A DNA stretch of 61,993 bases, counting the filler, from Sluysia triapertura (lineage: Eukaryota): the NCBI GenBank assembly GCA_046118255.1. It is 5 parts of 5 records of this genome, joined end to end, with 100 filler letters (N's around TTAATTAATTAA, not from the genome) between each part and the next. Parts side by side here need not be neighbours in the genome. Positions count along the whole stretch, not along the records: positions 13,422 to 25,768 come from JBJNIA010117751.1; 4 more parts are not named here. One strand, written 5' to 3'. Both the position numbers and the translations under genes were made by a program. Positions 1,887-34,581 of this stretch are shown piece after piece (positions within the stretch are counted from its first letter, which is position 1; every line of letters begins with the position of its first letter). The notes beneath the pieces were generated by a model that did not search any database, was not told the origin of the DNA, and saw nothing but the letters and a program-made list of their open reading frames with translations.

Positions 1887-1994
1887 CATTATTATTATTT
1901 TATTTATTTCAATATTGTGATCATTATAAATTTATTAGTTGTGATTAAATCTATTAATGAATTAGGATTTTTATCTATCTTCGATTAAATTATG

Positions 1995-2350: not shown

Positions 2351-2358
2351 CTAAAATA

Positions 2359-2583: not shown

Positions 2584-2789
2584 GTGATTAATGCAAGTAA
2601 AAAATTTAGTCAATTTTATTATTCAAATATATTAAAACAATATTTTTCTAATATATTGCAATAAACATACAAATAATGAATTTTATTTAGATTTATTTCT
2701 TACAATTTATAACCAAATCTCTCAATTTAATCAAGATTACTTTTGATAAACGAAATTTCTTATTTAGACAATCTGCTCAAATTGCATTT

Positions 2790-9440: not shown

Positions 9441-10134
9441 AATCCTTTCATATCTACGGTGGAATAGCAGCTCTAGATTCGGATTCTCTATGTCCACCAG
9501 TTGGAAGCGACGCGAATTCCAATTTTAATGCATTTTCTTTTTATCAAGTCAGCAATAATAATAATTTCAATTCACCGTTGATTCAGAATAATAATACTCT
9601 TAACAAGAAGCATTATTGGGCCAAAGGAACTGGCTTCGGTACTGGTAATATGTATTCAGCTTGGGATACTGAACGTTATTTAAATCGACAGAAATTCGAA
9701 GAGAAGCATTCGACGATAATAATTTCTAGTTTAACAGCATGTATTAACTGTACTGATAAATTACCGATGTGTTTTGTGTCAAAATTATACGAATTTGGAT
9801 TGATTCATGATTTTGTCTGTAGTCAGTTACGCAATGACTCTGTCTTAGATATATCGAAACATGTACCTTTATCGAAAGCGTTGTTGGACTTTATCAGAGC
9901 GTTACTGAAGCATGGGTGTTGTTTTGGATTATTATTACCTGAACTGGTTAAGTGGAACGGAGATTGTGTTGGCAAAGGCTATTGTTTCCTTGACGATAAT
10001 GAAATAATGAAATCGATTAAGTTTTCGTACAAGTATGATCAAAATACCCACTCGGTGATCAGTAATGAAAATAGTATACGTCAGCTGATGATCAAATTTC
10101 AAAATTGTGTTGATACTTACATCAAACGACTGAA
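9441..10134 (+). CDS. BIRC6: BIRC6/BRUCE internal exon (DUF3643 region)
   Basis: Acceptor ttttag ends at 9440; donor gtaggc at 10135. Encodes HYWAKGTGFGTG, LRNDSVLDISKHVPL and CVDTYIKRL, all characteristic BIRC6 motifs. Confidence 0.93.
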
Positions 10135-10809
10135 GTAGGCATTTTAATTTTATTAGCAACAACGAAAATTATTAAAAAGGCACTCTTTTATTGAGCTTAT
10201 AATTTAGAAAAGTTCCTTCAATTGTTAACTTCAAATCAAAAGAACAGCCTCGGAAATTAACTCGTCAACTTTCAATTCGTCGAAAATCAAATTATAATTG
10301 GTTGTTAGTTAACTTTTGTTTTGCTGTTTAGTGAAATACTTTCTTTAATCAAAAATTAGAGTGTTACGTAGAATTTTCAAAATGATCCTTCATTGGACAT
10401 TCAAAAGATTGCATACCTCAAAATTTTTCAATTAATTTAATAAATAAACAATTTTGTTGAAAAAAACTGAAATTCAATGATAAACTTTGCATTTTGATGC
10501 AGAATAATTAATAAGATAAGATAAGTTCGGACAAGTTCTGATTTGAAATCAGAAATTATGAAATCTCATCTTTAAACCCCGAACTATTCTGGACATAGAA
10601 CAAATCATGATTCCCAGACTTAATAATTGAAATACTGATCAAATACTAATTATATCGCTTAGATAATTTTATTTCTTTGTGAAAATTTGGACTTCTAAAG
10701 CTACGATTGTTTCTTAATCTTGATAGCATGCAAGGATCTTCGAAATTTGAATAGTAATTTTCAAATAAAGCTAATATTTTAGCACTTTTGACTTTCATTT
10801 TCTCGACAG

Positions 10810-11138
10810 ACTATCAAGAAATTGTTCTGGCATTCGTCAGTCGTCACGTTCGAACAACAACGAAACCGGAGATCCGAATAAAGAAGAAATAAATTCTACA
10901 GAACAATTAGTTCAATTGCTTCCAGAAATAACTGAAACAATAAAATTATTAGAAGATACGGTCACTCGTTTATATGCAGAACGAAATCAATACATTGAAG
11001 AAAAACAAAAAGAAATCAATTGTGCTACATCGAATAACAATGACGTGAACACTTCATCTTCCGGTGGATCACAGCTGCACTCTAATACTAACATGGAAGA
11101 GACCATTTATGTGAATACTTTGAAAAATTTACAGTTCA
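10810..11138 (+). CDS. BIRC6: BIRC6 internal exon
   Basis: Acceptor ctcgacag and donor gtaagt at 11139; phases match both neighbours. Encodes LLPEITET ... EETIYVNTLKNLQF (cf. BIRC6 LVPDIQKT ... EEKYVAVMKKLQF). Confidence 0.9.
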
Positions 11139-11178
11139 GTAAGTTGTTGTTATTTTGTTTAATTTTATACTATTTAAG

Positions 11179-11674
11179 AAATTATGGAAATCATTCCTAG
11201 AGTCAAAAATGCGAATGAATTAAGTCGGGAAGATTTCTTAACTCATCAAAAAATGATCAGATATCGAACACCGTATTATTTCATGAGACATTTGGAATCA
11301 GGGTCAATAGGTGGTCCGAATACTTCGAATTCAGCCAGTTCCAATTATATGATTCGTGCTCGTCGATTAGCTCAAGAAACTGTGACACTAAGTACCAGTT
11401 TGCCTCTCACTTATGATAGTAGTGTGTTTGTGCGTTGTGACGAAAATCATCTCGATGTCATGAAAGTTATCATCACTGGTCCCAGAGATACTCCTTATTC
11501 CAATGGTTGTTTTGAATTCGATGTCTATTTTCCGAGCGAATACCCACGAAATCCACCTATGATCCATCTACAGACAACTGGCGGTGGTTCTGTTCGCTTT
11601 AATCCCAATTTGTACAATGAAGGCAAAGTGTGCTTATCAATTTTAAATACTTGGCACGGAAGACCAGAAGAAAG
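11179..11674 (+). CDS. BIRC6: BIRC6 exon encoding most of the UBC (E2) domain
   Basis: Follows a 40-nt intron (11139-11178). Encodes [39 protein letters not shown] and [26 protein letters not shown] with the catalytic Cys intact. Probable donor AG|gt at 11675. The remaining exons were not found before the contig ends. Confidence 0.96.
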
Positions 11675-11929
11675 GTTACATTTTACATTGGATTAGTCTA
11701 TGTTGAGTTGCATTATTTAAAAACTACAATTTTTATCGAGTAAAATTTCGTATTTTAAAAGGAAATTAATTATTGAATTAAATTTATTTTCAAAACTTAT
11801 TAATCCTTTCGGGACGGGCTTTTTCTAAAAATCAATTCTTTGAAAGATATCAAAAAGTGTCAAATGTAATTTTTATTCATCTAAAAGTTTTTTTTCCTAT
11901 GATATATATAGTGAAACAGTCGAGACATC

Positions 11930-14290: not shown

Positions 14291-15811
14291 AAGTTTTATT
14301 AATGCTGTTGTTATCTTACTTTTTTATTGTTTCCATTTTTTAATTGTTTTTGAACCAGGATAATTAAAATATACTATTCAGATTTAGCATATACAATTAG
14401 AATTTTAATAGAATAAAAAGAGCAAATAAAAATAAAAGAAGCAAATAGTAAATCTATTCAGAATGTAACAAACAATACATTATTTCAATTAAATAAGATC
14501 AAAAATAAACGTTGATTATTTAGATGTGTTCAGATTACAAATGATGTGATTAAAAATTCAATAAAAGGTAAGAAATTAAATGAAGTACATGAACCCAATA
14601 CAAATATAATTTGGCAATTATATCAAGTTTGATAAATATTCTAAATAATGAATTATCAAACAAAATATCGGAAGCTTAACCAAATAAGAAGCACCAGATA
14701 AAAAGGAAATATTTGGAATTCGTTGTCATAATTTTTTGCTTATAAAATAAAAATTTCTAACCAATAAGGATTAATATGAAAAAAATCAATATTTTTATTA
14801 ATCCATAAATGTAAGTAAATGCTTCAATAAAGTATAGTTCTTCTTATGAATAACACTACTTCAATGCGAAATGGTGATTATATATCAAATGAAAAGTTGT
14901 TTTGTAAAATGTTGAAAATACTTGGGTTTTAGTAGCACTAATAAATTATAAAATCATATTTACTCTTATAACCGACTCAGATAAAATCTTTACTAAGCTG
15001 AAAAAAATAAAATTTTAAGATAAATCTATGTTTGTCAATCAAAATCCGATAAGTGAAAAATTATTATCTACTTCAAAATCAGATCCTGATATATATTATA
15101 AACATAATGAAATTGAGATTAAAACCTCATGTGAAAGAAATTGTAATTTGCAAAAATATTTTTTGATGTGTTGATCCATTAAGACTTTATTGTGCAATTA
15201 CTTTATTCAAGTGGATATTCATACGAGTTCAATGTAGCTATATTGTAACCATTATTTCTATTACTGAATGTGGTATAAGACTAATATGAGCTGAGGACGT
15301 AATAAGATCTTGACCTAACTATGAAGTTAATGTAAGTAACATCAAACTTTTCATTCAAACCATTCTAGTTAATACATAAATCTTGTTTTTAAATTATAAA
15401 CCTACAATAAGTTTCAATAAATGATTCTAACATCTTTCATCTCACTTACAACCTAAACCGTTACATCTGTCAAAACTAAATTTATGATAACCTTAAAGAT
15501 TTCATTATCATACTGTGAAGCAACAATAACCCATCTTGCATTACACACTGTGTTACTCTTGTTCCTTCACAGTACAACAATCGTTTTATCTCCTTTTATC
15601 TCATGTATATGAGAAGGTAAGAATTGAAAGAACAAGATCGTGTTAATAGCTGCAAGGATTTATGCGTTTTAATTTCCGTAATAATAATAATGACAACAAT
15701 TTCACCATTTTTATTGTTATTGTCAATATTGTCATTATTATTATTATTATTATTATCATCATTACTGATATTAATTAAAGCCATTTTGAATAGATTAATA
15801 AGACAGTTGCT

Positions 15812-15963
15812 ACCGTCATCAGTATTTTTCATATAACTAAAAAATTGTCATTTTTATCACATTACTGATGACGGTCAGTTGCACATATTAAATTTAGTTA
15901 ATTTGTTTACTGTCCAATCAGAGAGTAGTTCTGAATATCATTAAAAATACTCTGATTGGACAG
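15812..15963. promoter_or_regulatory. Two perfect inverted repeats upstream of the 397-aa ORF
   Basis: ACCGTCATCAGTA (15812-15824) / TACTGATGACGGT (15863-15875), and CTGTCCAATCAGAG (15910-15923) / CTCTGATTGGACAG (15950-15963). Confidence 0.6.
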
Positions 15964-16055
15964 ACAAAAAGTGTAGCCAAAGATTTTTATAACGAAAATT
16001 GATTTACAGTTGAAAGAAATATAAAAGAATTTTGATTTGTCTTTGTTGAAGTGTC

Positions 16056-17249
16056 ATGATGGATGAGGACTTTAGCATACGATGCATAACCACCGATGCG
16101 ACATCAATACTGCTATCAACAAATGTCTTAGCTACAGTTTTATATCATTTTGATCAATATATGATAATAATCGATATGGAAGAAAAAGACAGAGAAATAT
16201 CTTGGTTACTGCGAGCTATTCATATTATCAACGTTGCCAGTGATTTTGTGATTACATCAAGAATCAAGAATTTTAAAGTACATGGTTTGGATTTAACAAA
16301 GAAGTTACCTGAAGAGTTAAATAGTCTGATTTCACTTTTAAGCAAAGTTATCAACAACAGCAAAAGAAATGATATGCACTCACCCATCTTCTTACCAATT
16401 CTCAAGATAAATATGACCTTCCATAACCTGTTTATTCTAAAGCATCAATCCCTAAAGTCATCTATATCAAGAAAGTGGGCCCACATCCCAAATCCATTCT
16501 TTTCTGATAACAGCAATTATATATGCAATCATGAAGGACATGGTTCCAGTCCAGTAAATTGTGGTCAACATGTAATTGTTACATCTAGAATTAGTTTGAT
16601 GAATCCACTGATTAGATTTTTGCTACACCAATATGAACCAGTATGTTTAAGAATTGAATCCTTTTTAATATGTGCAAGAAGAACTGGAAGCATGAAATGC
16701 CGGCGAGTACATAGAGAATATAATCTAATACAAAAATCCATTAGTGTTCAAATATATAAAAATAAATTGTATATTTTAATTCTTATTTTTGCAAAGATAA
16801 AATTAACAAAAGGAGTCATAAAATTCAGATTTGGATCATATATTAAAGTTTTTACTATAGTCTGGAGTATTAAACATATGATAAATAATAAATTTATTAT
16901 TAATTTAAAAATACACTATGATCGACGTTATTTTAAGTATCTATGTCATATGCATGACAAAACTAAGAACTTTTACACAAGTAGTATCCATAGATCAATT
17001 GAAAGATATTACAATCGAATATCAAATTTTAAGTTGAATAATAACTTAATAAATTCATTGCATTTGATTTTATTCATAAAATTATTAATTAACACAATTC
17101 CTTGTTACAAAACTATTATGATGCCCTCAAACTCTACTTACCTGTTAAACACCAATTTTAAATCAAAAGACTTAATTTCAGAACATCTTTTAAAATACTA
17201 TTATAATTCAGTTTGTATAATAACAACCCCCACACAAAGTTTTACTTAA
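16056..17249 (+). CDS. Uncharacterised 397-aa single-exon ORF, probable member of the YSPIF / Cys-His motif family
   Basis: By far the longest ORF in the window, ATG to TAA, unlikely by chance at this AT content. Motifs MHSPIF, RIES, CARRTGSMKCRRVH and NRISNF recur in the same order in the decayed ORF at 33.5-34.6 kb. Confidence 0.6.
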   Translation: MMDEDFSIRCITTDATSILLSTNVLATVLYHFDQYMIIIDMEEKDREISWLLRAIHIINVASDFVITSRIKNFKVHGLDLTKKLPEELNSLISLLSKVINNSKRNDMHSPIFLPILKINMTFHNLFILKHQSLKSSISRKWAHIPNPFFSDNSNYICNHEGHGSSPVNCGQHVIVTSRISLMNPLIRFLLHQYEPVCLRIESFLICARRTGSMKCRRVHREYNLIQKSISVQIYKNKLYILILIFAKIKLTKGVIKFRFGSYIKVFTIVWSIKHMINNKFIINLKIHYDRRYFKYLCHMHDKTKNFYTSSIHRSIERYYNRISNFKLNNNLINSLHLILFIKLLINTIPCYKTIMMPSNSTYLLNTNFKSKDLISEHLLKYYYNSVCIITTPTQSFT

Positions 17250-17299
17250 CTAAAGATAGTTGAAATAATATAACCATTATAATTAAAAAACGCCTGATA

Positions 17300-18165
17300 T
17301 ATTACTAGCCCCAGGATTTCCATATTCATTTCTTTCGATGCTGCCATCTATGCGTTGGCCCTTTAGTGAGTAAGCCCAGTGTCATAGAGAACTAACATAA
17401 GAGATATTAACAAATATAAAAACTAAGTAGCAAAAATATCCACATAATATAACAGGTGCCCGGAGTTAAGACCAGCAGCATAAGGATACATTAAAATAAA
17501 AATAATAGAGAAGTGAGAATTTTATAAAATATAACTCAGTTTTGAATAAGTTCTTATACGTTTTAAAGTCTATAAGTGACTATTTTATAAGTTTTGCATA
17601 AACAAGTTTATAAATGAATATTTTACACTAGTTTAAATAAGTTAAGAATAAATTTTACACGAATCGATTATATAAGCTATAAGTTTACAAGTGTTACAAT
17701 AACTCCTTTGAATAAGTTTTAATTTTACACGAATAAGTTTTTATTATTGAATAAGTTTTACAAGTTTTGACTACGAATTTATACGAATTGATTTTATAAG
17801 TGATTACTGAACCAATACGAGTAAATTACATTACCAAATCCTAAACTGATAAGTATTGTAACATTTAAATAAAATTGATAAACAAATTGTACTATTTGAC
17901 GATTATAGAACTGAATTAAGAAACTACATGGCTTTGCCAAATGATTTTAGAGATTGTATTTCACAATTAACAAGAGAAACGCGTCCTTTAATGGCCTTAT
18001 CAGAAATGTGCAAATTTAGTGGAGCAAAGGAAGAACTCTGCGATTTCTTATATCAATATGATAGTATCGCTGAAGCTAACTGGTGGAACGAAGTAGAAAA
18101 AGTTAAAAGAATACAAAATTATCTTACTGGTGTGGCAATCCAGATTTATAAAGAGATAAATGAAC
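17300..18165 (+). mobile_element. gag: Ty3/Gypsy LTR retrotransposon 5' remnant (possible LTR end and PBS, leader, gag N-terminus)
   Basis: ORF from 17928: KFSGAKEELCDFLYQYDSIAEANWWNEVEKVKRIQNYLTGVAIQIY matches the retrotransposon gag capsid pattern F.G......FL..FE......W....K......L.G.A..WY. ...aca|ggtgcc at ~17453 is PBS-like. The leader has repeated gaataagtttt. Truncated by C-rich sequence at ~18165. Confidence 0.7.
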
Positions 18166-18468
18166 ATGTGTGGTGTTACACCCCACTGTATCACATACAT
18201 TTCATCCATTATAACCATCAATCACATAAACCTCATCACAAACAAAAATCATATCAAAATAAAACACATTTACAATATCTGCAGTAACACACTTCTATCT
18301 CCGTCAAATCACAGACGCGTAATAAAATCTTTTTTAGTAATACTTTCTTATACTTAACGCTTGTTGCCATTTCGTCATCACTAAAGCACTACCTTTTTAT
18401 TGTATCTTTTATTGTACTTTTTATTGCATTTATTATTGTAAATTCTAAAACTTTGAATGCGTTTTTGA

Positions 18469-18802
18469 GAAGTCAATGTACAATTTCTATTTTATGTACT
18501 GGATCAAGAAAAAGACAAGGATCAACTGAATGATGATCGAAATCATATTTATTATTCATTTATTACTCATATTTATTATGGTTATCCATCATTTCGGTGG
18601 ACAAAGGTTTTCGCTGAATCAGAAATTCCTTTGTCGGCTGCAACATCAACTAATGATAAAGAGATTTGCAAGCAAATGGCTAATATCGAAAGAGATACCA
18701 AAGAAAACACAGAACGAATGATCGAGGAGATGAATGCAGATTCTGAATTGATGGAAAATTTTATGGATCCTGAAGAGAGAATTAAGAGATTTCGAACGTA
18801 AT
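18469..18802 (+). pseudogene. Isolated exon-like open frame (~110 codons), product unknown
   Basis: Stop-free frame not in the ORF track: VLDQEKDKDQLNDDRNHIYYSF...GYPSFRWTKVFAESEIPL...MIEEMNADSELMENFMDPEERIKRFR, ending at a donor-like gtaatt. Higher GC than its flanks. Confidence 0.4.
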
Positions 18803-19267
18803 TGGTTTTAAAAAAAATAATTAGATTTTTTTCTGTGTTCATTAATATAATAGCAAAAACATTGTTATCTTTCGAGCATTTAAAATGGATCATGTTAAAG
18901 TAGAAATATTTTTATATCAATTTAAAAATTACCAATTATGATTTCATTGATTTTTTTGTGTAAAATACATTTAAATGCTACAATTATAATATCAAATTGT
19001 AAATTAATTATCAACTGGAATTAATTAAAAATAAAATCAATATTTTTCATTAGTTGTAAAAATTCTAAAGTTATTATTGTTCATTTATGCTTACATGTTC
19101 TCATCACATCAAAAAGTGGAAACAAATTTTCTATACAGAAATGTTCTACTTAGCGTAAATCTAATGAACATTATATTAAATACGGATAATCATTATTTAT
19201 ATGCAAAATCGAGAAGAGATTATCATGATAATGACGTATGTTATTTGGATCTATACATGTTTTGTAG

Positions 19268-19687
19268 ATCCAGAGATGCCGAATTAAAAAATATACAATA
19301 ACGCAAAGAGTTATTTATGAAATATAAACCAACTATTCATCTAGCTGCTAAAGTTGGTGGTCTGTACAATAACGAAGAATAATTTTGATCTTTCTAGAGA
19401 TAATACGAAAATTAATGACAATGTTTTATACTGTGTTTGTAAATATAATCTTTCCAAAGTAATATCATGTCTTTCTACATGCTTATTTCCTGATAAAACA
19501 ACATGTGCTATAGACAAAACTACGGTATATAACGATCCTCGACAAGATTCCAATTGCGGATATTCCTATGTAAAAGGAATGATAACCATTTTGAATAAAG
19601 TATGTCATAGTCAATGTTGTCGCATATTTACATCGGTTATTCCAACGAAGGTGCACGTCCCGTATTACAATTTTAATAGTGATGATG
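19268..19687 (+). pseudogene. GFUS: GDP-L-fucose synthase (GFUS/TSTA3/FX) pseudogene exon
   Basis: SRDAEL...YKPT-IHLAAKVGGLYNN [frameshift] ...NDNVL...KVISCLSTCLFPDKTT...GYSYVK...FTSVIPT...NFNSDDG. In-frame TAA at 19299-19301 plus one frameshift. Acceptor tttgtag and donor gtaata are retained. Confidence 0.88.
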
Positions 19688-19949
19688 GTAATATAATTTA
19701 TTTATTGTTATTTACATTTTTCTTGTTTTTTTATTGCTTAAATTTTCGTTAAGTGTTAACAAATTTCGTTAATGTGTTAAATTTTGTTTTAATGTTGGAT
19801 TTGCTAATTTTCACAGGCATTACGCCTATTTTGTTAAATATAATAAAAATATGTTTAAATCGCTTTTTAATTATAGTTTGTCTAATTCCAATCTTTTATA
19901 ATAAAAGTTTAAAAACAAATAAAAATAATGATAAATTGTATAAATTAAA

Positions 19950-20649
19950 ATATTTTTTGCCCTCCACAATATATAAACTAGTTTTATACATTATGTCAAA
20001 TATATTCTTATTATACATTCATAGCGACGAATAAAAGATTTAGTAAATATTAAATTGCCTTCCCTTACTCCTTGTAAAATACCGAAAGGGTTAGTAGCAG
20101 TTAAATTTTTAACTAATATCAAATACATATCTAAATTTTTCGTAATATCACTTATATTTACACAACACTTTTCTTTAAGCACATCATTTATTTGTAATGT
20201 TATGAATCTAATATGTGAAGAATACATTAAAATACTATTTATTAATTGTAGATTATTAATACGAAATAACATATTTCTAACACATGATTCAATAGTCTTT
20301 AAATCAATTTCTAAAGTATTAGATAACACAAGTAACAAAACTTTATACAAAATATTATTCATTAATTGCAAAATTTTATAACGAAATAACATATTACTAA
20401 CACATAATTCAAGTCTTTAAAGCAACTTCTAAAGCATTAGATAACACGAGTAATGACACTTTTGGATTTTGTAGTTCTATTTCATCATATATTTCATTTA
20501 ATATCTAATAACAACTTTAACTTGTTATTAGATATCAAAAAATTTATTGTATCGATACAATTCTTTCCGCTTAAATTATTAATTGATGAGACTTCTTGCG
20601 CTCTATTAAAATCAGAGGCTAATATCTTGATTTCATTCCGAGTTGTCAT
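19950..20649 (-). pseudogene. UFL1: UFL1 (E3 UFM1-protein ligase 1) N-terminal pseudogene with internal tandem duplication
   Basis: ATG at 20649: MTTRNEIKILASDFNRAQEVSSINNLSGKNCIDTINFLI (cf. UFL1 WEEIRRLAADFQRAQ....QRLSERNCIEIVNKLI) ... INDVLKEKCCVNISDITK ... GNLIFTKSFIRRYECIIR (cf. GVIFTEAFVARHKARIR). Has a deletion/frameshift after LLD and a ~120-bp duplication (~20230-20340 vs ~20350-20455). Confidence 0.85.
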
Positions 20650-21014
20650 TTAACAAATTACCAAAGACAACATTTTAAAATTTTAATAAATTATTAATAA
20701 TTATTATTAATTTTTTACATGCAAATAATTATGCTGTTTTATTATATTAAATTCAAATTTTGTAATAAAACATATCCATTTGATATCGTCTGTTCTTCTA
20801 TATTTCAACGTCTCCTACTGTTGAAAACAATTATCATTAATTTATATTTTACAACATAACACAATTATAAGTAAATTAAAACCAAAAAAATAATAATGAT
20901 ATAAACTATTAACATCAACAAGTATAAGTTAAGTAAATTTTATTTTTTATTACTGATAATCAGTTGACTATAGAAAATAGTATATAAAATGCATAAAATT
21001 TTACGATTCGTTAT

Positions 21015-21600
21015 TTAATTATTAGGCACTAAAACGGTGTCGTTATTATTGTTAACATTATTAAAAGACGAAACACGTTGAGTATGTTTTCTTAACTGAT
21101 TCATATGCTGATCGATTATATTTCTAATTGTTTGGTCCGTTCACGTCCTTCATTAAAATAACAAGCTGCCGCTAAAGTTGGATATACATTCATTTTAGAA
21201 TTAGTATCATTTTGTTTGTGCTTACAAGTTGTTTCAGTATTCGATATTTCTCTACTATTTATTTTTGTTTCGATTCGGGTTCAATCAAAGTATATCGATA
21301 ATTTATGATTCTTTATCATGCAGTACCGGATATATGATGGTTTTATAGTTTGAATATTAACACTTTGAGAATTTCTGCAGTAGAACAATAGGGATCACAT
21401 CGAAATTATAAATGAATATTATATAAATAAATGTATTGTTTTTACTATCGATATAACTGCTTCTGCTAATATTTCTACTAATACATCATTACTGTACAAA
21501 CTTTTATTAAAGTAATTCACAGCCGAAATATTATTTGAAATTCTGATTCCTTTGCGTGATAAAATACCATCAATAAACTTTTCATCAGTCTTCAAATTTC
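21015..21600 (-). pseudogene. Coding-like fragments, product unknown
   Basis: Two stop-free stretches: NLKTDEKFIDGILSRKGIRISNNISAVNYF...ILAEAVISI and IETKINSREIS...MNVYPTLAAACYFNEGRERTKTIRNIIDQHMNQLRKH...PNN*. Confidence 0.3.
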
Positions 21601-21959
21601 ATTTACATTTAGTTTAAAATTGAATACGAAAAACGACGAGTAACGCAAAATAGATAAAGTATTTAATATAACTAGGACATTTATTTGTTACGTAGTTTAT
21701 GTAATCTTTAAACAAACAGGCTAAACTAAAAAGTTTACATAATGCCAAATGTCTAAGAATTTTTGAACATACTTATTTCCATATACCACTATTATTCCTG
21801 AAAGAATAGAGTAAATCATGATCATAATAATTAAAATAAAGCTTTGAAATATAAAAGTTTACCTCGAAAATCGAATTCTCAATTTTACTATTGAGTCCTA
21901 AATTATCTATATTTTGACCATTTATAATTTCAGGAAATGTATTGGTAATGAAGAAAACG

Positions 21960-22460
21960 ATTTTTGCTTCAATGTAGTGAGTAAATTTGTAATTCTTTCT
22001 GAATGAATTTAAAATACATTATCGTCATCTGTGGTAAAACCTGTAAAACCATGGAAATATATACAATGTTTTCCATACGTGAGGCACTCGCCATCATTTG
22101 ACCAGATTTATAAGGTAGCTTAATCAGTGTTTTTGTATTACTTGTATTATAATGATAATGATTATTATAATCGAACATGTAGGTAGGTGCACCTTTCACT
22201 AATTTCAAGTTCTTATTTAAAAGGTTTTCACCATTTAAACTAGGTTTCACTTCAAGAATTTTATTGTTCGTAATTAAATTAGGAAAAATAGGTGAGTATA
22301 AACAATCAATACGAAAAGTACTCGGATAAAAATTACAATTTTCAATTTATTTAACATCATAATTATCAATCAATTGACTTGATCATTTGTTTTGTTTTTG
22401 AACATGGAATCGGATAACAGATTTCTTTATTCAAGTTAAAGGATCAATGAATTGTTGCAT
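21960..22460 (-). pseudogene. Decayed member (copy C) of the YSPIF / DGxCxxYGxxCxYxH ORF family
   Basis: LYSPIFPNLI at ~22284-22301; after a frameshift, NDGECLTYGKHCIYFHGFTGFTTDDDNVF*IHSERITNLLTTLK (motif at 22051-22095), which aligns with 34384-34520. Confidence 0.65.
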
Positions 22461-22744
22461 CAATACTTTATTAGGTTAGTTATACATTTTAAAATTTTAA
22501 TATTGAACTTCATTTAATTAACTTTAATATTCTAAAAGGTAAGTTTTAAAATTTAAGCACAAAATCTTTTTTTTAATAATGATTTTTACAAGAATTACTG
22601 TGACATCCAAAACAATTGTGTTGTCAAAAATAATTGGTGAACGATTTTTATTGAACTATCTTAACTATGTTTTAAATTAAAATGATTGCAATTAATTGAC
22701 CAATAAGGATAATAGTTAGACGAAAACTGTCATTAGTTGACAAT

Positions 22745-22785
22745 AATGGTAATAATAATAATGATAATGAAATTGTAATAATGAA

Positions 22786-22823
<38 letters not shown>

Positions 22824-23500
22824 AAAATAAAATTAATAGTAATAAAATAAAATAAAATGGAGTTATAAAAATAAAGACATAAAAATACACAAAATTCTTT
22901 ATTTCTTTGAATATTATTTATCTTTTCTTTAAAATATAAACAATGAAATAAAGTAAAATTACATAAAATCTTTTAAAACTTAATTCTTATGATTCTTGAA
23001 TGTACTTTTGTTTTATAAAAAATCTGTAAATGTGAAGAGTGTTCGTGTCTTTTCACAATTAGTGCTTCTTTGTTACTTACATCTTGTTGAATAAGTACGT
23101 TTCTTGTGTTTCTGATACTATGTATGTTTCAATTACTTTACAAGTCTTTTAGGTATTGCCTAATGCTAAATTAATTAAGCTTGAATTTGTTGAATTTAGA
23201 ATTTGTGTTATAAAATACATGCTGTGTTTAATAAAAGGATATAAAAAGAAATTAATGAAATTGGAGATGTTAAAGAGATTTCATTTACATCAGCATTATA
23301 TTTCGTTTAAAATTCAATTTTAATGATGTTTTTAATGATTTTAAATGGAATGAGTGCGTTAAGGGATATAAGAATTTGATTTTTGGTGTATTGAGATGAA
23401 TTTAAAATTTTAGTGACTTAGTTGGCCACCATAAAATGACACATTAAAATCTAAATATGGTTTAACATTAATCCATTATACGCCAATGTCCATTTCTTGG
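22745..23500 (-). repeat. C-rich 'WWPT' repeat, copy C, with (ATT)n tail
   Basis: Reverse complement reads VILWWPT at ~23420-23440, continues C-rich, ends aaagaaaagata...aaagaaataaagaattttgtg, then (att)n at ~22745-22880. Confidence 0.65.
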
Positions 23501-23739
23501 AACACACTTTCAAATCTTATTCTTTTACTAATGGCAATTATAACAGCCATTAAATTTAAAACAACAATTATGGCAAAAATAGTTCGAGTTGGTTAGCGTG
23601 AGTATCATTATACACTTTAATTTTGTTTTTTTTGAATCGCAGCGGATGAGTTATGTTTATTTTAAACTTATAAGAAAATGTAAAACTATTATTACATCTA
23701 ATACTGTGTACTTTAAATGTATTACTAAATGATTTTAAT

Positions 23740-24170
23740 TTTACTTTATCAAGCATACATAAATCACAAAAAATTTATAAAGCATAGTTACATATATTGT
23801 CATCAAACATGCATTTACACTATCGTTATTTATCTCTAATCTGATAACCACTTCTACAATGAGGTATGCCATGAAATTTCGAGACTGCAATTCGCGTAAA
23901 GTTACTTCTTTTCTAATTGTGTTATCGTCGATGAAATTTGCACATACTGCTCGTGACAGCTCCTTACTAATCTTTCTCATATTTTTCAAACATGTAAAAC
24001 AATTTCTCGAAATCTTTGAGATTTCCCTCTTTCACATAACCCAAAATTGTTTTGGATTTCTGATGGGTACTTTTTCAATTTTTCAGAAAATTAGACTTTT
24101 TATGATTTATAATGGATTTCTAATGAAAATAATTCTTTCTTTCTATCACGGCTAAGATTCATTATACTGG
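23740..24170 (-). mobile_element. Possible LINE ORF2 remnant (EN-RT linker)
   Basis: KIEKVPIRNPKQFW resembles the NPK.FW motif upstream of LINE RT domains. Multiple stops. Confidence 0.25.
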
Positions 24171-25768
24171 TGAACGTTTCGAATTCTATTATAAAATAAT
24201 CGATGTCAGTAGTTTCACAAAGAGGTTCATATTCTAAGTAATACCAAAAGATATAGTCACTACGTACTGAAAATAATTTAAATTCTGTTTAAAATATTAA
24301 TTATATTGCACTTACCTTACAACATCTGAGAATATGCGACGAAAATATATCACTAAAACAATATTATATATTTAACTAGCATGTAAGTAGAAATTGGCAG
24401 AGTATAAGATATAGAATTAAATTGGTTAGAAAATGAAATATTAATGAAGAAAAGGATCTTATGTGATGAAAATTAAAGAATTACTGGCTATAAAACCTGA
24501 ACGGAGAAACATAATATAAAAACATAAAAAATTTCTGCAACAAACATTAATATTTCAAATTTGCTAGTTGATACATATTCTAGCATTAACAATTATATCT
24601 ATTTTTTGTTTGGTACGTATTTTCAATTGTGACAATTTTTAAATTAGTACTTACTTTTACTAACAATTACATTGAATATAATTTCAACGTAAATGTAGTA
24701 TATTGAATAAATAATTTTAATAATAAAAGACAAAGTTTAACGCGAGAAATTGAAAAAATTAAATTTAAAGATCCAATTTGATGTCGATCACACGAAGTGA
24801 AAGGAATAACTAACTCATAATAAGTCGTCGGCCTGACAATTATCAAAACTATTCAATATCTTATTACTAAAAAATTTTGCTAGCAGTTTGTTAACCAGGA
24901 AACCATTGAACACTGAGTGTTAAGTCCCGCATTATAATAAATTCATCAAGCAAATATGAAATGCTAACTAACAACTTTTAAAAAACGTATTCATAATTTT
25001 TATTTATATAGGTGTTTCCATTCGTTAATCTAAAGTTTAAATTCGTACCCAAATTATTTTCATTTGTCACAGATACATTAAACTAGGATCAAAATATTAT
25101 GAATACCAACTGACTTGCTCCTTATTTGTGTATTAACTGATGGACAACTGTGTATTTGACGTTTATTTATTTATTTGTGTATATAGTTACAAATAATGTA
25201 TAAAGTTGTAAAATAATCTCTATAAATTATATTTATAATGTTGTATAATATTTTAATTGTATTTAAATAATTTTAAATAACTTTAATAATTGGATTTTAA
25301 ATTTTAGTTTCTTTTTGATTATACATTATTTAAATACTTTGTTTAGTAAAATTATTTTGTTTCTTTAAAAGGATGTCAAGGTTAAGCTAAAATTAATATA
25401 AATATAATCACAATTCATACAAAAACAAAATAATAAAAATCTTAACAAAAATTTTAATAATCTTTGGAAGGAGATTTGTTAATATCATCAAGGTAACAAT
25501 TTTTTGAAAGAAAATTTTGTGAATCACATACATAATTTTGCCGTTAGTTATTTTCAATTAACTTAAAATATATTTTACGTACATAGTAATTTTTGACGTA
25601 AAATCTTTATAACTCATTGTGGAACCACTTAAAGAGGTTCAACGTAAATTCTAAAATTAAAATACATTTTGATAAGATTAACGACACTGTTAATCAAGCA
25701 AGCATTTATTATCTTAACCTTGATTCTTAATTTGTGTGAACATTTTATTCCTGATTTTAATTGTGTTT

Positions 25769-25868
25769 NNNNNNNNNNNNNNNNNNNNNNNNNNNNNNNN
25801 NNNNNNNNNNNNTTAATTAATTAANNNNNNNNNNNNNNNNNNNNNNNNNNNNNNNNNNNNNNNNNNNN
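25769..25868. other. Artificial contig linker
   Basis: 44 N + TTAATTAATTAA + 44 N. Confidence 0.97.
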
Positions 25869-26044
25869 GTCTATTTAGATATTTTAATTATATGTTTCTT
25901 TTTAATCATTTCGGGCCTTAAGCCCTTGTTAAAATTTAAATTAAAATTAGTTAATTGTTTTGTTTTAATTAAAGTTATCTTTTTAAAATTAAATATTTAT
26001 AAAATAAAAAATAAAATCAAATTAATGTGGCCCTCCACACTTTA

Positions 26045-26228
26045 ACAATAATAATAATAAAATGATAATAATAATACAGTAATATTATTATTATTAAAAT
26101 CACATAAATTCCCTTTTTCTTTTGGACAAACACGATTGTTCTTTTATCTTCTTTATTTTCTCGACATATCTGAATTAACGATAAAGAAAATTAAAATAAT
26201 AATAATAAGAAGAAAAACGACAATGTTG

Positions 26229-26263
<35 letters not shown>

Positions 26264-26900
26264 AAAATGCATAAAGTCTTAGATTCTTAGTTTAACATGG
26301 TCTTACTTTAAATCCTTTTAGATTCTTAACATATTATGAACCTTACAGAATTATAAATTTGCGATGTTACGGCTGAAAGATGTAAGGTAACGCGTAAGGC
26401 GTTTTAATATAAATGTTACCTGCTGTTTTCTAGTTTTACGTAAATTTTAGATACTTTAGCCTAATGTTCTAAATGAAGTAATTTTTCTAGATGAAAATGT
26501 GAATAGATCGTGAGTTACTAATATACTATAAGGGTGTAGTTTTGTGTGTAAAAGTAGATAAGTTATAGTCTAACTTTTGATGTGTTCAAAAGGTGATTAT
26601 ACGATGTTGATGTTTTTAAGTAATCTTGTCCTTTTGTGCTGTTAGGGATTTAAATTGGCTTTAGCAGATGAATTGTTTTCGTTGATGTAGAGGAGATAAA
26701 TATGAGAATGTTAAAATATTAGAGAGTATGGATTTATGATTTAGTTTAATATTGTTTTATGTTGATTTTTGGATGTAAATTGTAGATTTTGAGTGTGTAT
26801 GTGTTTTGTTGAATTATGCAGAGAAGATTTTTATAAAATTTGATAATAGTGAAAGGTTAGCAAAAACTTCTGTAAAAAGAATGTTTTTGATGAATTTTTT
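26045..26900 (-). repeat. C-rich strand-skewed repeat, copy F, with (ATT)-rich tracts
   Basis: G-rich plus strand. Reverse complement aaaatctacaatttacatccaaaaatcaac matches ~12199-12226 aattcacaactttacatcaaaatcaaac. Similar aaagaagataaaag...aaagaaaaagggaatttatgtg end motif. Confidence 0.5.
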
Positions 26901-27360
26901 TGGGAATGTGAAATATATTTTTGGCTAGTTTAATTTGTAACTCTTACACAACTTGAAACTTGTTATTGTAAATGACATTTACTGGGACATGAGAACTAGC
27001 TTTGAAAACATATTTGTATGTGACATTCTTAAGCATCTTAAGTAATAGACTGCCTTCGACGTCTCTGTTAGGTGAACTCTCCAGGATTTATTCATTTTGT
27101 AAGAATAAGCTAAAACTTTTAACATAAATTCTTGCAATATTAATAATTTTTCCGCTTAAAGAGATCGATTAAACTTTAGGATGACCCTCTAGTTATTTAA
27201 AATGTATTCTTATGCGCCTACTGAACTCAATCCATGTATAAACTGTTTTTCAATAAGAAAACTACAGCATAATAAAACTAAGAAAGAAAATTCATTTTTT
27301 ACATTAAAAAAGTAATCTAGTAGGTAATAGCTGTAAAAAGTTTTAGAACTTCTTATTTAA

Positions 27361-27839
27361 CCCTTTCGCCGCCGCTGGGACCAATTGGTCCCACTCGTAT
27401 TTCTTCAAGTTTCTCAGGCTTAAGTAGGTCATGTTACATATTGTTTTAGAGGATTAAATAAGGCCAATGTTTTACGTAATCGTTTCTGCTTTTAAAGCAT
27501 GTGCACAAAGTTATTTCAATATTATACAACCATTTTGTGAAAAAAATATTTGAATCAAAAATAATCAGTGAAAATATTAGTCTAAATTTATTATTACTTT
27601 AGTTAGAAGATGGCAGATTGCTTTAGAACATTCCACACTATATTACACTTTGATTGGTAATACACAGTTTATGCTATTTTATTGAAAAATTAATGAAAAA
27701 TTATACATTTTCTATTAATTTTGAAATTAATACTTACGCAAGCGACGCCAGCTTTGTAATGGCTTTTCTCACATATATTTCATTATAATCTCTCAAATAA
27801 ATTTATGTTCGCAAAATGCGCTCGCCGACGGTTAAAGAG
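27361..27839. mobile_element. piggyBac-like non-autonomous element (MITE)
   Basis: TTAA|CCCTTTCGCCGCCG ... CGACGGTTAAAGAG|TTAA: imperfect TIRs with TTAA on both sides. Subterminal palindrome TGGGACCAATTGGTCCCA at 27376-27393. Confidence 0.65.
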
Positions 27840-27962
27840 TTAAGTGATCTCATTTGTACGTTTCCTAGACTAATTAATAATTTTAAAGAATTATTTAGTA
27901 CGATTATATAAAATCAATAAAATAAAATTTAATTAGTTGTTGATACAATGTATTTTTTCTAA

Positions 27963-28226
27963 ATGGTACTTTTTCTTTATTGTAATTTTATTTACTATAA
28001 ATGTAGCAAGAAATTATTTGCATACATTTGGGACAATCAGGTGTTCAAATTTCCAATGCTGCTTGGGAGATATTTTGCATAGAACATGGAATAGAAGCTA
28101 ATGGAACATTAAAAGAAAGTCTTCGTGACACAGACAGCCAAGCTTTCACAACCTTCTTCTCAGAATCCCCTACTGGCCAGTATGTACCACGATGTTTAAC
28201 TTTAGACTTAGAACCAACAGTTGTAG
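27963..28226 (+). CDS. TUBA: Divergent alpha-tubulin, exon 1 (ATG 27963-27965) and exon 2 (28007-28226)
   Basis: ATG|gt, then a 41-nt intron, then ag|QEIICIHLGQSGVQISNAAWEIFCIEHGI...TFFSESPTGQYVPRCLTLDLEPTVV|gtaagc. Both intron positions match the common animal alpha-tubulin structure. Downstream exons were not found in this contig. Confidence 0.92.
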
Positions 28227-30779
28227 GTAAGCAATAATTAAAAAATACTTTGTAAAATTAAATAATCGCCAATATAATATTCAGTATAAATATGTAAAAA
28301 AACTGTTTATTTATGTTTGAATATTTATAAATGTTCATGCCAAGGTGTCATAAAAAGGCCGGATGACCTTAAATCTGTGGCTACTTAAATAATTTGAAAG
28401 TACAATTTCGGTTTTACAAACTTGTTTTTTTATTAAATAGTTTTGTTTAATTTATGTATAAAATCTAATTAATGTTTTCTGAAATAAGTATTTGATTCCA
28501 AAATTGAATATATTCCCTTTTATTGTTAGCCAGTAATTAAACCGTTTCCAATTAAATTAGATAATTCAATCTTCAATTCGATAATTCGCACCTATCTTCA
28601 CTTGGATTTACGTTTTTTAACTTGTGGTGATAATTACTTGCGTCACTCATACTAAAATTTTTCTCTTATTATTTGGTTTTGCAAAGTAATATGACCAATT
28701 GTACATTGCAGTATTTCCTCATCTCAGTTTCTATAATCATAAACGTTTTACATTTTCTATAATGAATTTTCGAAAATTTTATCAATAATTTTGTTAGGAC
28801 ATTATTATCATTTCATAATAATAATAAAACAATAGTAATTTAATAATTCATAATATAATAATACTAATTTCAATAATAATGAAAACATAATAATATTAAT
28901 TTAAGTCTAGTCACATTAATAATTATAAATATCAAGTGGAATGACATATGGTATCACACTTAAACGCTTTTATATCCACAATTTATCTCTAAACACAGTT
29001 AATTTTTGCATCAGTTTATCAAATACAATTTTATGTTGGTTAATTTATTGAACTGGCAAAGCTAAAAACAAATTTAATAATTATTGTTGGCAAATTCATT
29101 AACAGTCTTGACAAGAGTTCCAATAGATAACGAATTTCATTATAAAACAAATTTTATTATTTGCTTGACTCTGGTAAACACCTGAAGTGCTGCTGCTGCA
29201 CTATATCGCCTTTTTATTTCAATGTGGTTCTTTAAAGAAAACCTCATATCACGATTCTATTAATAATTTAAGGTTTCGACTCTTATCCGAGTCTTACACA
29301 ATTAAGGGTTCCTCAACATGATTTTTAAATAAAGTTATGATGCTACTAAGAAGCTTATATATATGAAACTACTGCTTCGCTATTAAGAATCACTATTGTA
29401 ATTGAATCTTAATACTCAATTTGCGTTTAATAAATCTCGTTAATTCCCTATCTTCGTATTATTAAGGATAATTATTGTAGATTTTATAATCCTATTTAAA
29501 GGATTTAAAAAGTGATTTTATCACCGCATTTAAACCAGTGTGAAAATTGGAATCAAAATTGTTTAAAATGCTTTTTAAAAAACAAAATTAAACTAAAATT
29601 GAAAAACCACAACAATATGGTGAATTGAATGCGCTTTTGAATATGGATTTATTCGAGTACATAAATACTCTTCATTACACTTACTTTATGTACATGTGTA
29701 TTCCTTATTTGACAGAATTATATTGATGACTTTCAAAAGAGTGGATAATCACTATTTTAGTAATTAATTCAGGCTACAAAGCCTAATTAAAATCATTATT
29801 GCGTCATTTGTATTATATTTTTTGCATTATATATTATATATTTTTGTATTATATACTATTATATATTATATATTATATAGTATTATATTATTTTTATATT
29901 ATTAAAATTATTATAAGAGAACGTTATTATATTATTTGTTATTATTATTACTACAAAAACGTTAGTGTATTAAATTAAGCTGACATGTAAGTTTATATAT
30001 GCAAATTTAGCCTCCTTGTGAGGTTAAAATTCATTACTTTTCCAAGGCAATTTAATACAAAATCCATTTTAAAATTCTCAATTGATATTAAGATGAAAAG
30101 AAATCTTAATATTTGACTGTTATTATTTGAGTCTTGTAATTTGATCTTACTGCTGATCATTTATTAAATTAAAGAAGTTGTCTATAAATAAATTTTTCTT
30201 AGTATTTATTTAATTTTAATTATTTACAAATTAATTTGATCGAAGTATTACTTGTTTGTGTTTAGGTTGCATTATATTTCATTAAAATAGCTATTCGCTG
30301 ATTAGGTTCAAAGAACCCCGTGACATTTAATGTGGTCAGAGACACTCTAACAATTGCAAAATTTAACGAAGTCATTATGTAAAATCCTGTAGGGTTGTCC
30401 ACCAGTAACGTCATAAAGCACCAACTATAGGCGAACCGGTTTAAATATATTTTTCGCAGTACTACTTCGGAATAAAGTACTCGTACTTATATTTTTGGCT
30501 ATTTTTGTGAGTTAATTGTTTCAAACCCATTCTATCAAGGGCGTTAGATAGTAAGTGTCGGTGAAATTGCTTACCTATTATGTATCTGAGTTTTGAAACG
30601 ATTTGAATGAATTGTAAAAAATTAAAGTTTATATGAAATACATGTGTGCTTTGATAACAATAAATAAATTTCAAAGATAAATCAATAAGTAATTAATGTT
30701 TTTTATAACAACTTTAATAAAAAATTAATAACGAAAATTAATAATAATAATATATTAATTAATATTATACTCATATCTT

Positions 30780-31410
30780 CTGCGTAAGCACTCAAAAGCG
30801 CTTAAAGTAAATCATTAATCATAATATTTCTGAAACAGAAAGAACTTTGCCTTTTTCATAAATATTCCATAAATCTTGTAATTTGAAATTATGTGGTAAC
30901 TTGTATATTTTTAGCTGTTCAGCTGTTTAATTTATTAATAAATTTTCGAATATGTGATATTTTATTTAATTGATATTTAAACTTTTTCGAAATACAATTA
31001 ATATGTTCTTCCATGTTCATTTTTGAATCAATATTTCGTACTTTTTGCTTCGAATCTAGTGTCTTACCACCTACAATTAACTTTGTATCATTTATTTTTA
31101 CTATTATTTTTATTACTGAAGATTATAAATTCTGACTTTTCTTGATTGATTTTTTAAGAATTTATTTCCAAACCATTTATCAATTCTGATACCAGTTCTT
31201 TTGTTATTTGAATAGTATTTTCTATGTTCATTTCAAATTCAGTATATATTTGATTCGATTACACTTGAAACATCATTGATATATATTATAAACAATAATG
31301 GACCAAGTATTGATCCCTGAGAAACTCCATACTTTACATATATTTCATATGTAAAACATATTGCTTTCTTTCTTTTAAATATGATTCAAACCATTTTATT
31401 GCACTAAATT
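30780..31410 (-). mobile_element. L2/CR1-clade LINE remnant (RT core plus 3' end)
   Basis: AIKWFESYLKERKQYV, then KYGVSQGSILGPLLFIIYINDV (RT motif GVPQGS.LGPLLF..YIND), then IDKWF. The 3' end at 30780-30885 matches 3255-3330. Confidence 0.85.
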
Positions 31411-32529
31411 GAACTTGATTTATAATTTATTGGTTTACAATTTACATTTAATATATTTATTTACAATTTACAATTTAATATATTTCACATATTACAATTA
31501 ACGCAAATATTAATTGTGTTTATTTTTTTATGATTTTATTTTTATAATTTTATTTATAAATATTATAATTTATCACAAAAGGAAAGAAAAACAATTTTAC
31601 AATTTATATTTATTGAATTTTATAAATAAATAATTTTAACAATCAATATCATTTAATTTTGTTTTACTGAATAAAAAAGATAATTTCGATAAATAAACAA
31701 AAATAAATAAATAACAAACATGGTGGAATTAAAATAAAAGAATATAAAAGAATGTTTTTTGGAATTAACTCACATTAACAACAATCGTAACAACTTCATC
31801 AGTAGCAGTTAAAAAAATTTTTCTGGATCCTCTCAATTCCACGTCCATGTTTAAGTAAGGATATTTTAATAAGATTTATGAAATCCTAACTTTAAGGTAG
31901 TAGGATAAATTAAAATCATACTTAAAATCATTAAATCTAATCCTAGACCTTACAGGATAGGTTAATTTATACTAAAATTGATTTTAACCTAAGATTTAAT
32001 CTTAAGCTTTTAAATTTCATATTATTATTATTATACCATTGTAATTATTGTATTATCGTGAGCTATCTTGTTAATAAATATTAGCTCCTCGATTTTAATT
32101 TGATTCAATAAAGAAATCTAAAATCTATTATTATTTGTTAGACCGTAACAGCTAATACAACAAAAAAAACGATATTATTAACATTAAAATACTCATTATA
32201 TACGTGACCACGTCACTACTTCTCTAAAGTACTATACAACTGCTTCGATAAAATCTTAATAGGACTTAAGTAGTACTTACTAGACGAACGGACTTCCAGA
32301 CATTTTGCTAAGATGTAAGATAGGCTCTTTCGTAGTAAAACACTTACAGTATTCAAAGATATAGTCAATAAATTCATTTTCTAAGTCGATTTAACGAGAC
32401 AATAAAATATACAACGAAATTAAAATTATTTGAAATTTTAATAATCACTTTCTTTTTATTATTTTTATACTATTTTTCTTTTAAGTAAAATATTAATTAG
32501 AATTGTTAAATTTTTATTACATTCAGTTA

Positions 32530-33130
32530 TAGTCACTGTGGTGACCAACCTTTTTATTCAAACTTTAAATCATTTTATACATATTTAATATCACTTTTCT
32601 TAACATTTCACATTTTACATTTCACTTTTTCAGATTTATTAAAATTCTTTTATATTTTAAAACATTTTAAACTCATAATTATATAACATTAAAATTTTAT
32701 TTAATATCTAAAATCAGCGAATGTATATTTCAAATTTTATTTAAAACCTTTTAACATTCAACCATGGACATCATTGGAAAACACTAAACTCACATTTCAA
32801 AATCAATTTTAAACATTACAATCAAAATGAAATTTCTTTTAACATCTTTAACTACGTTATTACTTTCATTTTAGTCTTTACCGCGTAAATTCTTTTTCAA
32901 AAACAATACGAACTAAAATATATTCTTAAAGAATCTACGTTTAAAGAAAATTACAATAAGATCGTATTTCAAGAAATTTATGTTTAAAGAATTTTATATA
33001 AAGCTATAGAAGCAAGCAAAGAATTATTTAAGCGTTTTAATTTCATTTTTTATTTTATTAATTATTTTATGTTAATTTTATATTTATTATTAATTTTACT
33101 TTATTATTATTAAAATTATTATTATACCGA

Positions 33131-33167
<37 letters not shown>

Positions 33168-33170
33168 GCC
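32530..33170 (+). repeat. C-rich 'WWPT' repeat, copy D, with (ATT)n tail
   Basis: gtggtgaccaaccttttt at ~32538 aligns with 12067-12440. ATT-rich tail at 33040-33167. Confidence 0.7.
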
Positions 33171-33252
33171 AATATTATATAAAACCAAAATTTTAATTAG
33201 TTTAGTTGTTGCTAACTCAGTCAACAGCGCTGCTTCTATTCATTTCATTTCC

Positions 33253-33439
33253 AACTGTCACCACCTGACAGTTCATGGTTAGAGTTGTAATTGTCGCCAA
33301 GCTAAAAATAAAAACATTGAACTAATAAAATCTACGCTTGTATTCCAGCATTCAACCGACTAAACAGCACTTTTTTTCTAGTACAAAATAAGTATTATTG
33401 ATCAGCGAATCACATTGCTGTCAGCATTCAATGTGATTC
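33253..33439. promoter_or_regulatory. Two inverted repeats upstream of decayed ORF copy D
   Basis: AACTGTCA-ccacc-TGACAGTT at 33253-33273, and GAATCACATTG (33407-33417) / CAATGTGATTC (33429-33439). Confidence 0.5.
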
Positions 33440-33499
33440 AACTATACAAAACAACTTCACAATTAATTTAGACACGAATTTGTTTAGATTAAAAATTAG

Positions 33500-34581
33500 T
33501 TAATAAGATTAAAAACAGATAGTTAATCAAAAAGTTTGAACGTGTTAATAATTTAAATACTGTTGAAAATAAGTCTTCCAGATAAAAAGTTATTTAGACG
33601 TAATTGTAAAAGATTGGTATTTCATTTAAAATTAACTCCATCATTAGAGTTTACTGAAATTAAACAATCAATAGTTGATAAAACAAAAGATGGTTTCGAT
33701 GATTAATTTGAAAATTGTATCTTATCTGTGTGTCGACATAAAACTCAAATAATCGATTCAGATTATTTTTTAGTAGAAAATAAAGTTAGTTCTACATATC
33801 CGATTGAACTGTTGTCGCAAAGCAATTATGATTGCGACAAATGTTTGAAGCAAGATCATAATATCGGTGTTATACATTCTTTAGAAAACATAAATTTTGA
33901 TTATAATACTAAGAAAGTATATTCTTAAGGCATCTGAAAAACCAACAATAACTACGGTCATCACTAATACATTGAATTATACACTCCAATGTTTTAAATT
34001 ATCTTGCCAAATTTTCACATACCAGCCATCGTCACAAACACAAAACAATTCAAAATGCTATTAGTATGAAACAATATCTTTTAATTCATCTAATGTGTAT
34101 CAATACATATCAGTAATTAATTCAAATCCTTCCAGTGTATACTTAATGTCAAGTAATATTCCTTTAATCTACTTGACAGATATGAATTTTGATCCAACAT
34201 TCTCACATGTTGTAACAGATGATGTAAGAACTAATTTGGTGATTAATGCAATTGAGCATGATCAATACGTATTTAACTCACACAAGCTATATCGTTCCTA
34301 TTTACCAATTAGAATAGAATCTCTTAAAAAGATCATTCAGAATGACCATTAGAGAAGTGGCATGTCTATATGACATGTCGTTAGATGGAAGATGTTCAAA
34401 GTACGGTGCTAGTTGCAAATATTCGCACGTCTATGAATTAAGACACGATGCAAACGACGAGGACTCTTTCTACAGCAATTCTAATCGAATCTCAACTTTT
34501 ATATCCAGTTTACAACTTAATCCAAGAACTATTCTTGTCAACAATTTATTAAGTTTAAAAGTAAATAATAATGTTTTATAA
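33500..34581 (+). pseudogene. Decayed member (copy D) of the YSPIF / CCCH-like ORF family
   Basis: Frameshifted ORF pieces 33728-33928, 34095-34352 and 34342-34581. LYTPMF at ~33977; YRSYLPIRIES; CLYDMSLDGRCSKYGASCKYSH (C-x9-C-x6-C-x3-H, CCCH-like); DEDSFYSNSNRISTF. Confidence 0.65.

Follow-up and report, generated by a model that had tools for sequence, protein, structure and literature searches.

An unrecognised CCCH finger variant with its own tail, found as two broken copies in Sluysia triapertura DNA

Tristetraprolin is a cytoplasmic tandem-finger protein, and fingers of the tristetraprolin and Unkempt types read A/U-rich RNA by stacking of the bases on conserved aromatic residues. According to the accessible part of PMC9698766, members of the tristetraprolin family contain two C-x8-C-x5-C-x3-H fingers, which are located 18 residues apart, and a lead-in of the RYKTE type. 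M2-1 is described in the accessible part of PMC8162694 as having one CCCH finger, located near the N-terminus, and an oligomerisation region behind it. A CCCH motif in a mobile element is described for the Gag of the Schistosoma mansoni gypsy element Saci-2 in the accessible part of PMC2582038. In the accessible parts of PMC10770923 and PMC10418960, CCCH occurs in reference titles only, and in that of PMC2864245 it is part of an element name. No description of the spacing C-x9-C-x6-C-x3-H, or of a family of the type reported here, is found in the literature searched, which excludes most subscription papers and, for the family, also repeat libraries (Repbase).

The window, which is the whole stretch of DNA analysed, is 61,993 nt long, is made up of five contigs with N spacers between them and has a GC content of 24%. 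Its gene content is that of an intron-bearing eukaryote, most probably an animal. It contains two copies of a domain that is an unrecognised CCCH finger variant with its own tail, both of them broken, which is a real but small finding. Copy A is located on the contig at 13422-25768 and copy B on the separate contig at 25869-36971, and the motif strings reported in the original prediction are present on these two contigs as described. The features are listed in Table 1.

Table 1. Coordinates of the two copies and of the features around them
Feature	Position (nt)	Strand	Remarks
Copy A, shared domain	21925-22125	-	CCCH-like finger without first Cys, and tail of about 40 residues; alignment with copy B spans 22125-21925
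Copy A, breaks of the domain		-	In-frame stops at 22110 and 22011; frame closes at stop 21924-21922
Copy B, shared domain, open	34354-34581	+	Full finger 34363-34428, tail, stop 34579-34581; aligned to copy A over 34354-34557
Copy A, upstream frame	22107-22463	-	LYSPIF at 22301-22284; open from 22346; three stops in the first 39 codons
Copy A, downstream frame	21119-22018	-	300 codons, six stops
Copy B, upstream stop-poor frames (two)	33557-34349	+	LYTPMF at 33977-33994; without family match
19-nt exact direct repeat, 5' copy	22484-22502	.	Candidate target-site duplication; ATG 23 nt inside, at 22460
19-nt exact direct repeat, 3' copy	20670-20688	.	UFL1-like frame starts 20 nt beyond, on the minus strand
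Candidate poly(A) signal and decayed tail	20689-20743	-	AATAAA at 20743-20738, 21 nt, 28-nt A/T-only run opening with six A; read directly

The shared finger and its tail

The finger of copy B is complete and has the spacing C-x9-C-x6-C-x3-H (C 34363, C 34393, C 34414 and H 34426). In copy A the second and third Cys and the His are retained, and the first Cys is absent. The finger type proposed in the original prediction is supported, but copy B has the whole CCCH finger and not only its tail. The absence of the copy A motif from the ORF lists, which had been ascribed to a frameshift, is mainly due to the two in-frame stops (22110 and 22011), which leave 32 open codons, although a frame change is also present upstream. 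A finger scan of six frames and profile searches detect one finger per copy and no further finger at either locus. The best Pfam family for both copies is zf-CCCH_UNK (PF25427), with E-values of 5e-4 for copy B (20.4 bits) and 3e-3 for copy A (18 bits). None of the five CCCH families that match copy B reaches its curated cut-off, the best score being 20.4 as compared with 31.1 bits. The nearest PDB chains are those of tristetraprolin, MBNL and Unkempt (E 0.04-8). A structure predicted for the finger and tail from a two-row input contains helices at 47-67 and 69-83, and with a pLDDT of 40.4 and a pTM of 0.27 it is given little weight. Judged from the motif, the finger would bind zinc and RNA, and the domain probably acts like a CCCH RNA-binding finger and belongs to no named family.

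The local protein alignment of the two copies covers 67 codons with a score of 72. When the 87-residue open piece of copy B is shuffled 1000 times and compared with the six-frame window, the best score is 67, the mean is 52 and none reaches 72, so that the pairing withstands the shuffled controls by which it was to be judged. When the finger is excluded, the local score of the acidic/RI tail behind the His is reached in 54 of 10000 shuffles, and in 6 of 10000 when the register is fixed by the His. Because the tail is significant without the finger, copies A and B share a finger-plus-tail domain, not merely a generic finger. The E-values of the pair in a tblastn search within the window range from 8e-4 to 4e-3. 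Outside the 67-codon block, no likeness between the two copies is detectable by frameshift-aware or frame comparisons.

Identity between the copies is 34, 40 and 19 of 67 at the first, second and third codon positions respectively, and the synonymous sites look saturated. Sixteen of the 20 identical residues are encoded by different codons. In 150 chance alignments with scores of 45-89, which served as controls for the codon pattern, the fraction of different codons is 0.47 +/- 0.14, and two of them reach 0.82. A third-position identity as low as that of the pair is present in 25 of the 150 controls and is not unusual alone. The codon pattern supports a long constraint at the protein level before decay, and together with the tail shuffles it bears out the past purifying selection that had been proposed for the motif and tail.

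The LYSPIF and LYTPMF strings had been taken for a shared upstream block as well, but this block is not significant. They are located about 69 and 136 codons ahead of the motif, respectively, in other frames. The best score of a frameshift-aware comparison of the upstream regions (50) comes from a different pair of frames and is reached in 20 of 136 control windows. A 399-aa ORF at 16050 was considered as a third member and is rejected, because its scores of 55 with copy A and 64 with copy B come from unrelated registers and an unrelated pair gives 67.

Frames, flanks and relatives

Both copies are located within stop-poor stretches of 1.0-1.4 kb, each composed of three frames (22346-21119 for copy A and 33557-34581 for copy B), and in both the frame ends 40-50 codons past the His. 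The downstream frame of copy A has its six stops where about 25 are expected from the background of 0.084 per codon. This region is decayed coding sequence of no known family, either a continuation of copy A or a second ORF. In the upstream frame of copy A, stops are not scarcer than in the background over the 39 codons that follow the ATG. When the surroundings of both copies are read through stops, no Pfam, PHROGs or NCBIfam family is detected, and no transposase, reverse transcriptase, integrase, Gag, protease or capsid family is present in these frames or in the flanks. Decay reduces the sensitivity of this search, which in Pfam also missed the LINE relic at 31 kb. Neither terminal inverted repeats nor LTRs are found around either copy above AT-rich noise. 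The last residues of the downstream frame of copy A (21119-21200, minus strand) presumably resemble a DNA-transposase C-terminal motif, without Pfam support. A reassigned stop codon is rejected as the cause of the breaks, since exons of 247 and 172 codons in host genes remain open in the standard code and the frames are broken by all three types of stop. A 19-nt GT..AG mini-intron across the second stop of copy A is also rejected, because it would disrupt the collinear match to copy B.

Several other features are observed on the contig of copy A. An open frame of 399 codons at 16050-17249 (plus strand, 28% GC) contains a C-x8-C-x8-C-x3-H string and has no Pfam, PHROGs or NCBIfam family; its Atlas leads, at 0.80-0.82 and with low recognition, point to P-element-like transposase clusters. 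The region at 17862-18290 (plus strand) presumably resembles a fragment of LTR retrotransposon Gag, without a Pfam match. An intronless Epimerase-family piece of about 450 nt at 19300-19749 (plus strand, E 1e-6), which we take to resemble GDP-fucose synthase, contains one frame change and looks like a dead copy. It is followed by a UFL1-like copy at 19874-20649 (minus strand, Pfam E 6e-14 and 1e-7) with frame changes and an internal duplication of 120 nt. A decayed LINE reverse-transcriptase relic, presumably L2-like, is read directly at 30900-31450 (minus strand) on the contig of copy B, and a strongly diverged alpha-tubulin-like exon is located at 28007-28234 (plus strand, Pfam Tubulin E 5e-14). 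Host DNA in the window has introns. A gene with a ubiquitin-conjugating domain (Pfam UQ_con) at 9395-11700 (plus strand), which we take to be BIRC6-like, contains an intron of 40 nt at 11139-11178, and such short introns may be helpful for placing the lineage. An exon at 60476-61114 (minus strand) has a start resembling a signal anchor and contains the first part of a LicD domain (E 0.005, below the cut-off). The first contig contains a repeat of about 220 nt in two inverted copies (2371-2593 and 6751-6978), which is possibly a small non-autonomous element.

The family had been predicted to be an unrecognised one, and this is borne out to the reach of the searches, in which the protein and contig databases yield no relatives other than generic CCCH fingers. 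No member with both finger and tail is found at the protein level outside the window in protein, viral, metagenome or prokaryote searches. Word-based protein searches, which provide weak evidence, give none of 70 candidates for the open piece of copy B, none of 393 for copy B read across one frame change and none of 534 for the downstream frame of copy A. A profile search of 1.84 billion representatives gives two matches with E <= 0.001, which are rejected as tandem-repeat proteins that lack the finger and whose scores are summed over nine and three stretches. The profile consists of two rows and 87 columns, so that relatives near 30% identity would escape it; the domain is an orphan at that sensitivity, which is not the same as absence. 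The Atlas matches listed are all below 0.9 and are mostly CCCH clusters, with two unnamed viral clusters, and serve as leads only. In viral contigs, no relative is present among 25, 40, 12 and 8 candidate stretches. Four of 61 stretches from metagenome contigs passed, but they are multi-finger proteins on eukaryotic contigs of 48-51% GC and match 14 finger residues only; the single hit among 17 from prokaryote genomes is a chance match of 13 residues without the motif. PHROGs and NCBIfam contain no family for either copy.

Copy number was probed with one public run of unrecorded type, X1, which is possibly derived from the source sample and is then not independent. X1 carries 0.74 of the sampled words of copy B, and no RNA run is present among the listed holders of these words. 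X1 contigs were mapped to 15800-22730 at 80% likeness, with 8 of 3412 pieces and 15 of 37 joints among the matches listed. One contig covers 21970-22222 of copy A without differences at a depth of 18. Because of this identity, the stops of copy A are not a slip of one assembly alone, although X1 may be the same sample. A contig of 253 nt aligns with 21772-22009 with 22 differences and 17 gaps. The summed depth over the 5' kilobase of copy A is 173-353, as compared with 18-20 for identical contigs, but it is not a copy number, since all 30 bins have a summed depth of at least 66 at 80% likeness in this AT-rich DNA. Copy A has relatives, of which the divergent 253-nt contig is a firmer sign than the depth. 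No joint that skips the 1.8 kb of copy A is present among the 15 of 37 joints listed. The summed depth is 1068-3345 over the UFL1-like copy, which suggests that this piece is a fragment of a host gene within a repeat, and 19004-33690 over 17862-18290, the highest value of the mapped stretch.

Origin of the two copies

The reading preferred here, with a probability of roughly 45% and therefore held tentatively, is that A and B derive from two old paralogues of a lineage-restricted, multi-copy family with a single CCCH finger and are now dead, that copy A was retroposed, and that the parent was a host gene or the cargo of a repeat. In the shared unit, which would close the frame or lie close to its end, an acidic linker and a helical tail would come after a single CCCH finger. 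The ancestral finger would have bound zinc through its CCCH ligands and probably read A/U-rich RNA, with the bases stacked on conserved Tyr/Phe positions, and the tail may have served as a surface for dimerisation or for binding of a partner. The family would have expanded long ago, because the synonymous sites look saturated, with dead copies remaining. A polyadenylated intronless transcript may then have been reverse-transcribed and inserted by a LINE just upstream of the UFL1-like start, where 19 nt would have been duplicated, to give copy A. The most likely parent is a host-lineage gene transcribed by Pol II, or else cargo in the repeats of that lineage, and not an autonomous element.

The 1.8-kb intronless and stop-poor stretch that contains copy A and is bracketed by the 19-nt repeat is weakly retrocopy-like. 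This repeat is the longest of ten non-microsatellite exact repeats of at least 15 nt at a spacing of 300-6000 nt in the window, and a repeat of at least 19 nt occurs somewhere in 7 of 40 block-shuffled windows. Ahead of its 3' copy there is an AATAAA with an A-rich run behind it, and both are common in this AT-rich DNA. The decayed copies of host genes nearby (UFL1-like and epimerase-like) and the LINE relic are counted for retroposition, and the failure to find a parent gene is counted against it. The bracketing repeat was recognised only in retrospect, and its perfect match over 19 nt is odd beside a much-decayed frame, which also argues against a retrocopy. No such flanking repeat is found around copy B.

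It is possible, though doubtful, that the domain comes instead from a mobile element that is abundant and undescribed (DNA transposon, giant LTR element, Polinton-like element or DNA virus) and in which it forms an accessory or structural ORF, with A and B as relics of two subfamilies; the finger would then bind the RNA of the element for its packaging, export or stability. The presence of two members with about 30% identity on separate contigs of a 62-kb sample suggests that the family is more abundant than host retrocopies usually are, as is typical of a mobile element. The related copies of A in X1, the long intronless stop-poor frames that flank both copies, the Gag of Saci-2 as a precedent and the transposase-like end of the downstream frame of copy A also favour this origin. 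However, neither the element-specific families searched for nor TIRs or LTRs are found around the copies, and the viral contigs contain no relative. The proposal that the family is element-borne is plausible, being supported only indirectly by the X1 copies of A and the candidate target-site duplication, and no transposase, reverse transcriptase, integrase or capsid family is detected within or next to either copy. It is unlikely that A and B are relics of an undescribed, abundant mobile element or virus within this animal lineage, encoding a single Unkempt-spaced CCCH finger with a helical tail as an RNA-binding accessory protein similar to M2-1/VP30, and with its transcripts also scattered by host LINEs.

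Copy B could also be a live spliced host gene, with GT..AG introns at 33917-34064 and 34224-34317, the first of which would include LYTPMF, and copy A its dead paralogue. Each candidate intron begins with a GTA-type donor and ends with a TAG acceptor that keeps the joined frames in phase, the finger and tail of copy B are open, and the host introns are short. This origin is nevertheless improbable, because the candidate introns have a GC content of 31%, as compared with 26%, 26% and 32% for the supposed exons and 17% and 26% for host introns, because 34 of 53 chance pairs of frames in the window can be joined likewise (13 of 53 with a GTA-type donor), and because the upstream exons have no start codon.

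A still smaller chance is given to the origin of A and B as endogenised genes of an RNA virus, which would encode a viral transcription or RNA-stability factor with an M2-1/VP30-like CCCH finger and an oligomerisation helix. Both copies are intronless, orphan and decayed, and their single finger and helix recall the layout of M2-1, although the helix is derived from the pLDDT 40 model and is given little weight. The finger is located 120-250 codons into the frame and not near the N-terminus, no M2-1/VP30 chain is present among 6, 5 and 8 PDB matches at E <= 10, no such Pfam family is detected, the AATAAA ahead of the A-rich end is indicative of Pol II, and no relic of a polymerase or nucleoprotein is located nearby. 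Finally, chance or convergence of generic CCCH-like strings is hardly credible. The shared block is short, was picked by eye and has modest tblastn E-values, but the shuffles, the tail alone and the codon pattern are all against it.

Comparison with known systems

The family is at present represented by two broken copies to which no function is assigned. If it is element- or virus-borne, it marks a class of repeat missed by library searches, and it is a rare further example of a selfish element with a CCCH RNA-binding protein. A host origin would make it a further fast-evolving CCCH expansion with dead copies, an ordinary finding. The 67-residue block provides a probe for intact members.

Copy A is similar to LINE-mediated processed pseudogenes in that it is intronless and broken and has a candidate target-site duplication of 19 nt and a candidate poly(A) signal and tail (AATAAA and A-rich end), but each of these hallmarks is weak in DNA of 24% GC, and copy B has none of them. 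Saci-2 shows that an invertebrate element can carry a CCCH motif, and is likened to the two copies by its description in the accessible part of the source, not by sequence or spacing; unlike in Saci-2, no Gag, protease or pol is detected around them. In pneumovirus M2-1 and filovirus VP30, a helical region comes after a lone CCCH finger (PMC8162694, accessible part), as is predicted with little weight for A and B, but the finger of A and B is placed differently in the frame, and sequence match and viral gene context are absent. Tristetraprolin/TIS11 (PDB 1m9o and 1rgo; PF00642) is the best PDB match for the finger (E 0.04-0.09) and is similar in the wording G-x-C-x(1-2)-YG-x-x-C-x-aromatic-x-H, and in copy B also in an ELR-like stretch behind the His. 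A and B differ from it in having one finger with the spacing x9/x6 instead of x8/x5, and in lacking the RYKTE-type lead-in. They differ from Unkempt (PDB 5elh; PF25427) in the absence of neighbouring fingers and in the tail, which is dissimilar, and the PDB search gives E 1-5, but the finger of copy B has the same C-x9-C-x6-C-x3-H spacing as finger 2 of Unkempt and aligns with the Unkempt finger without a gap.
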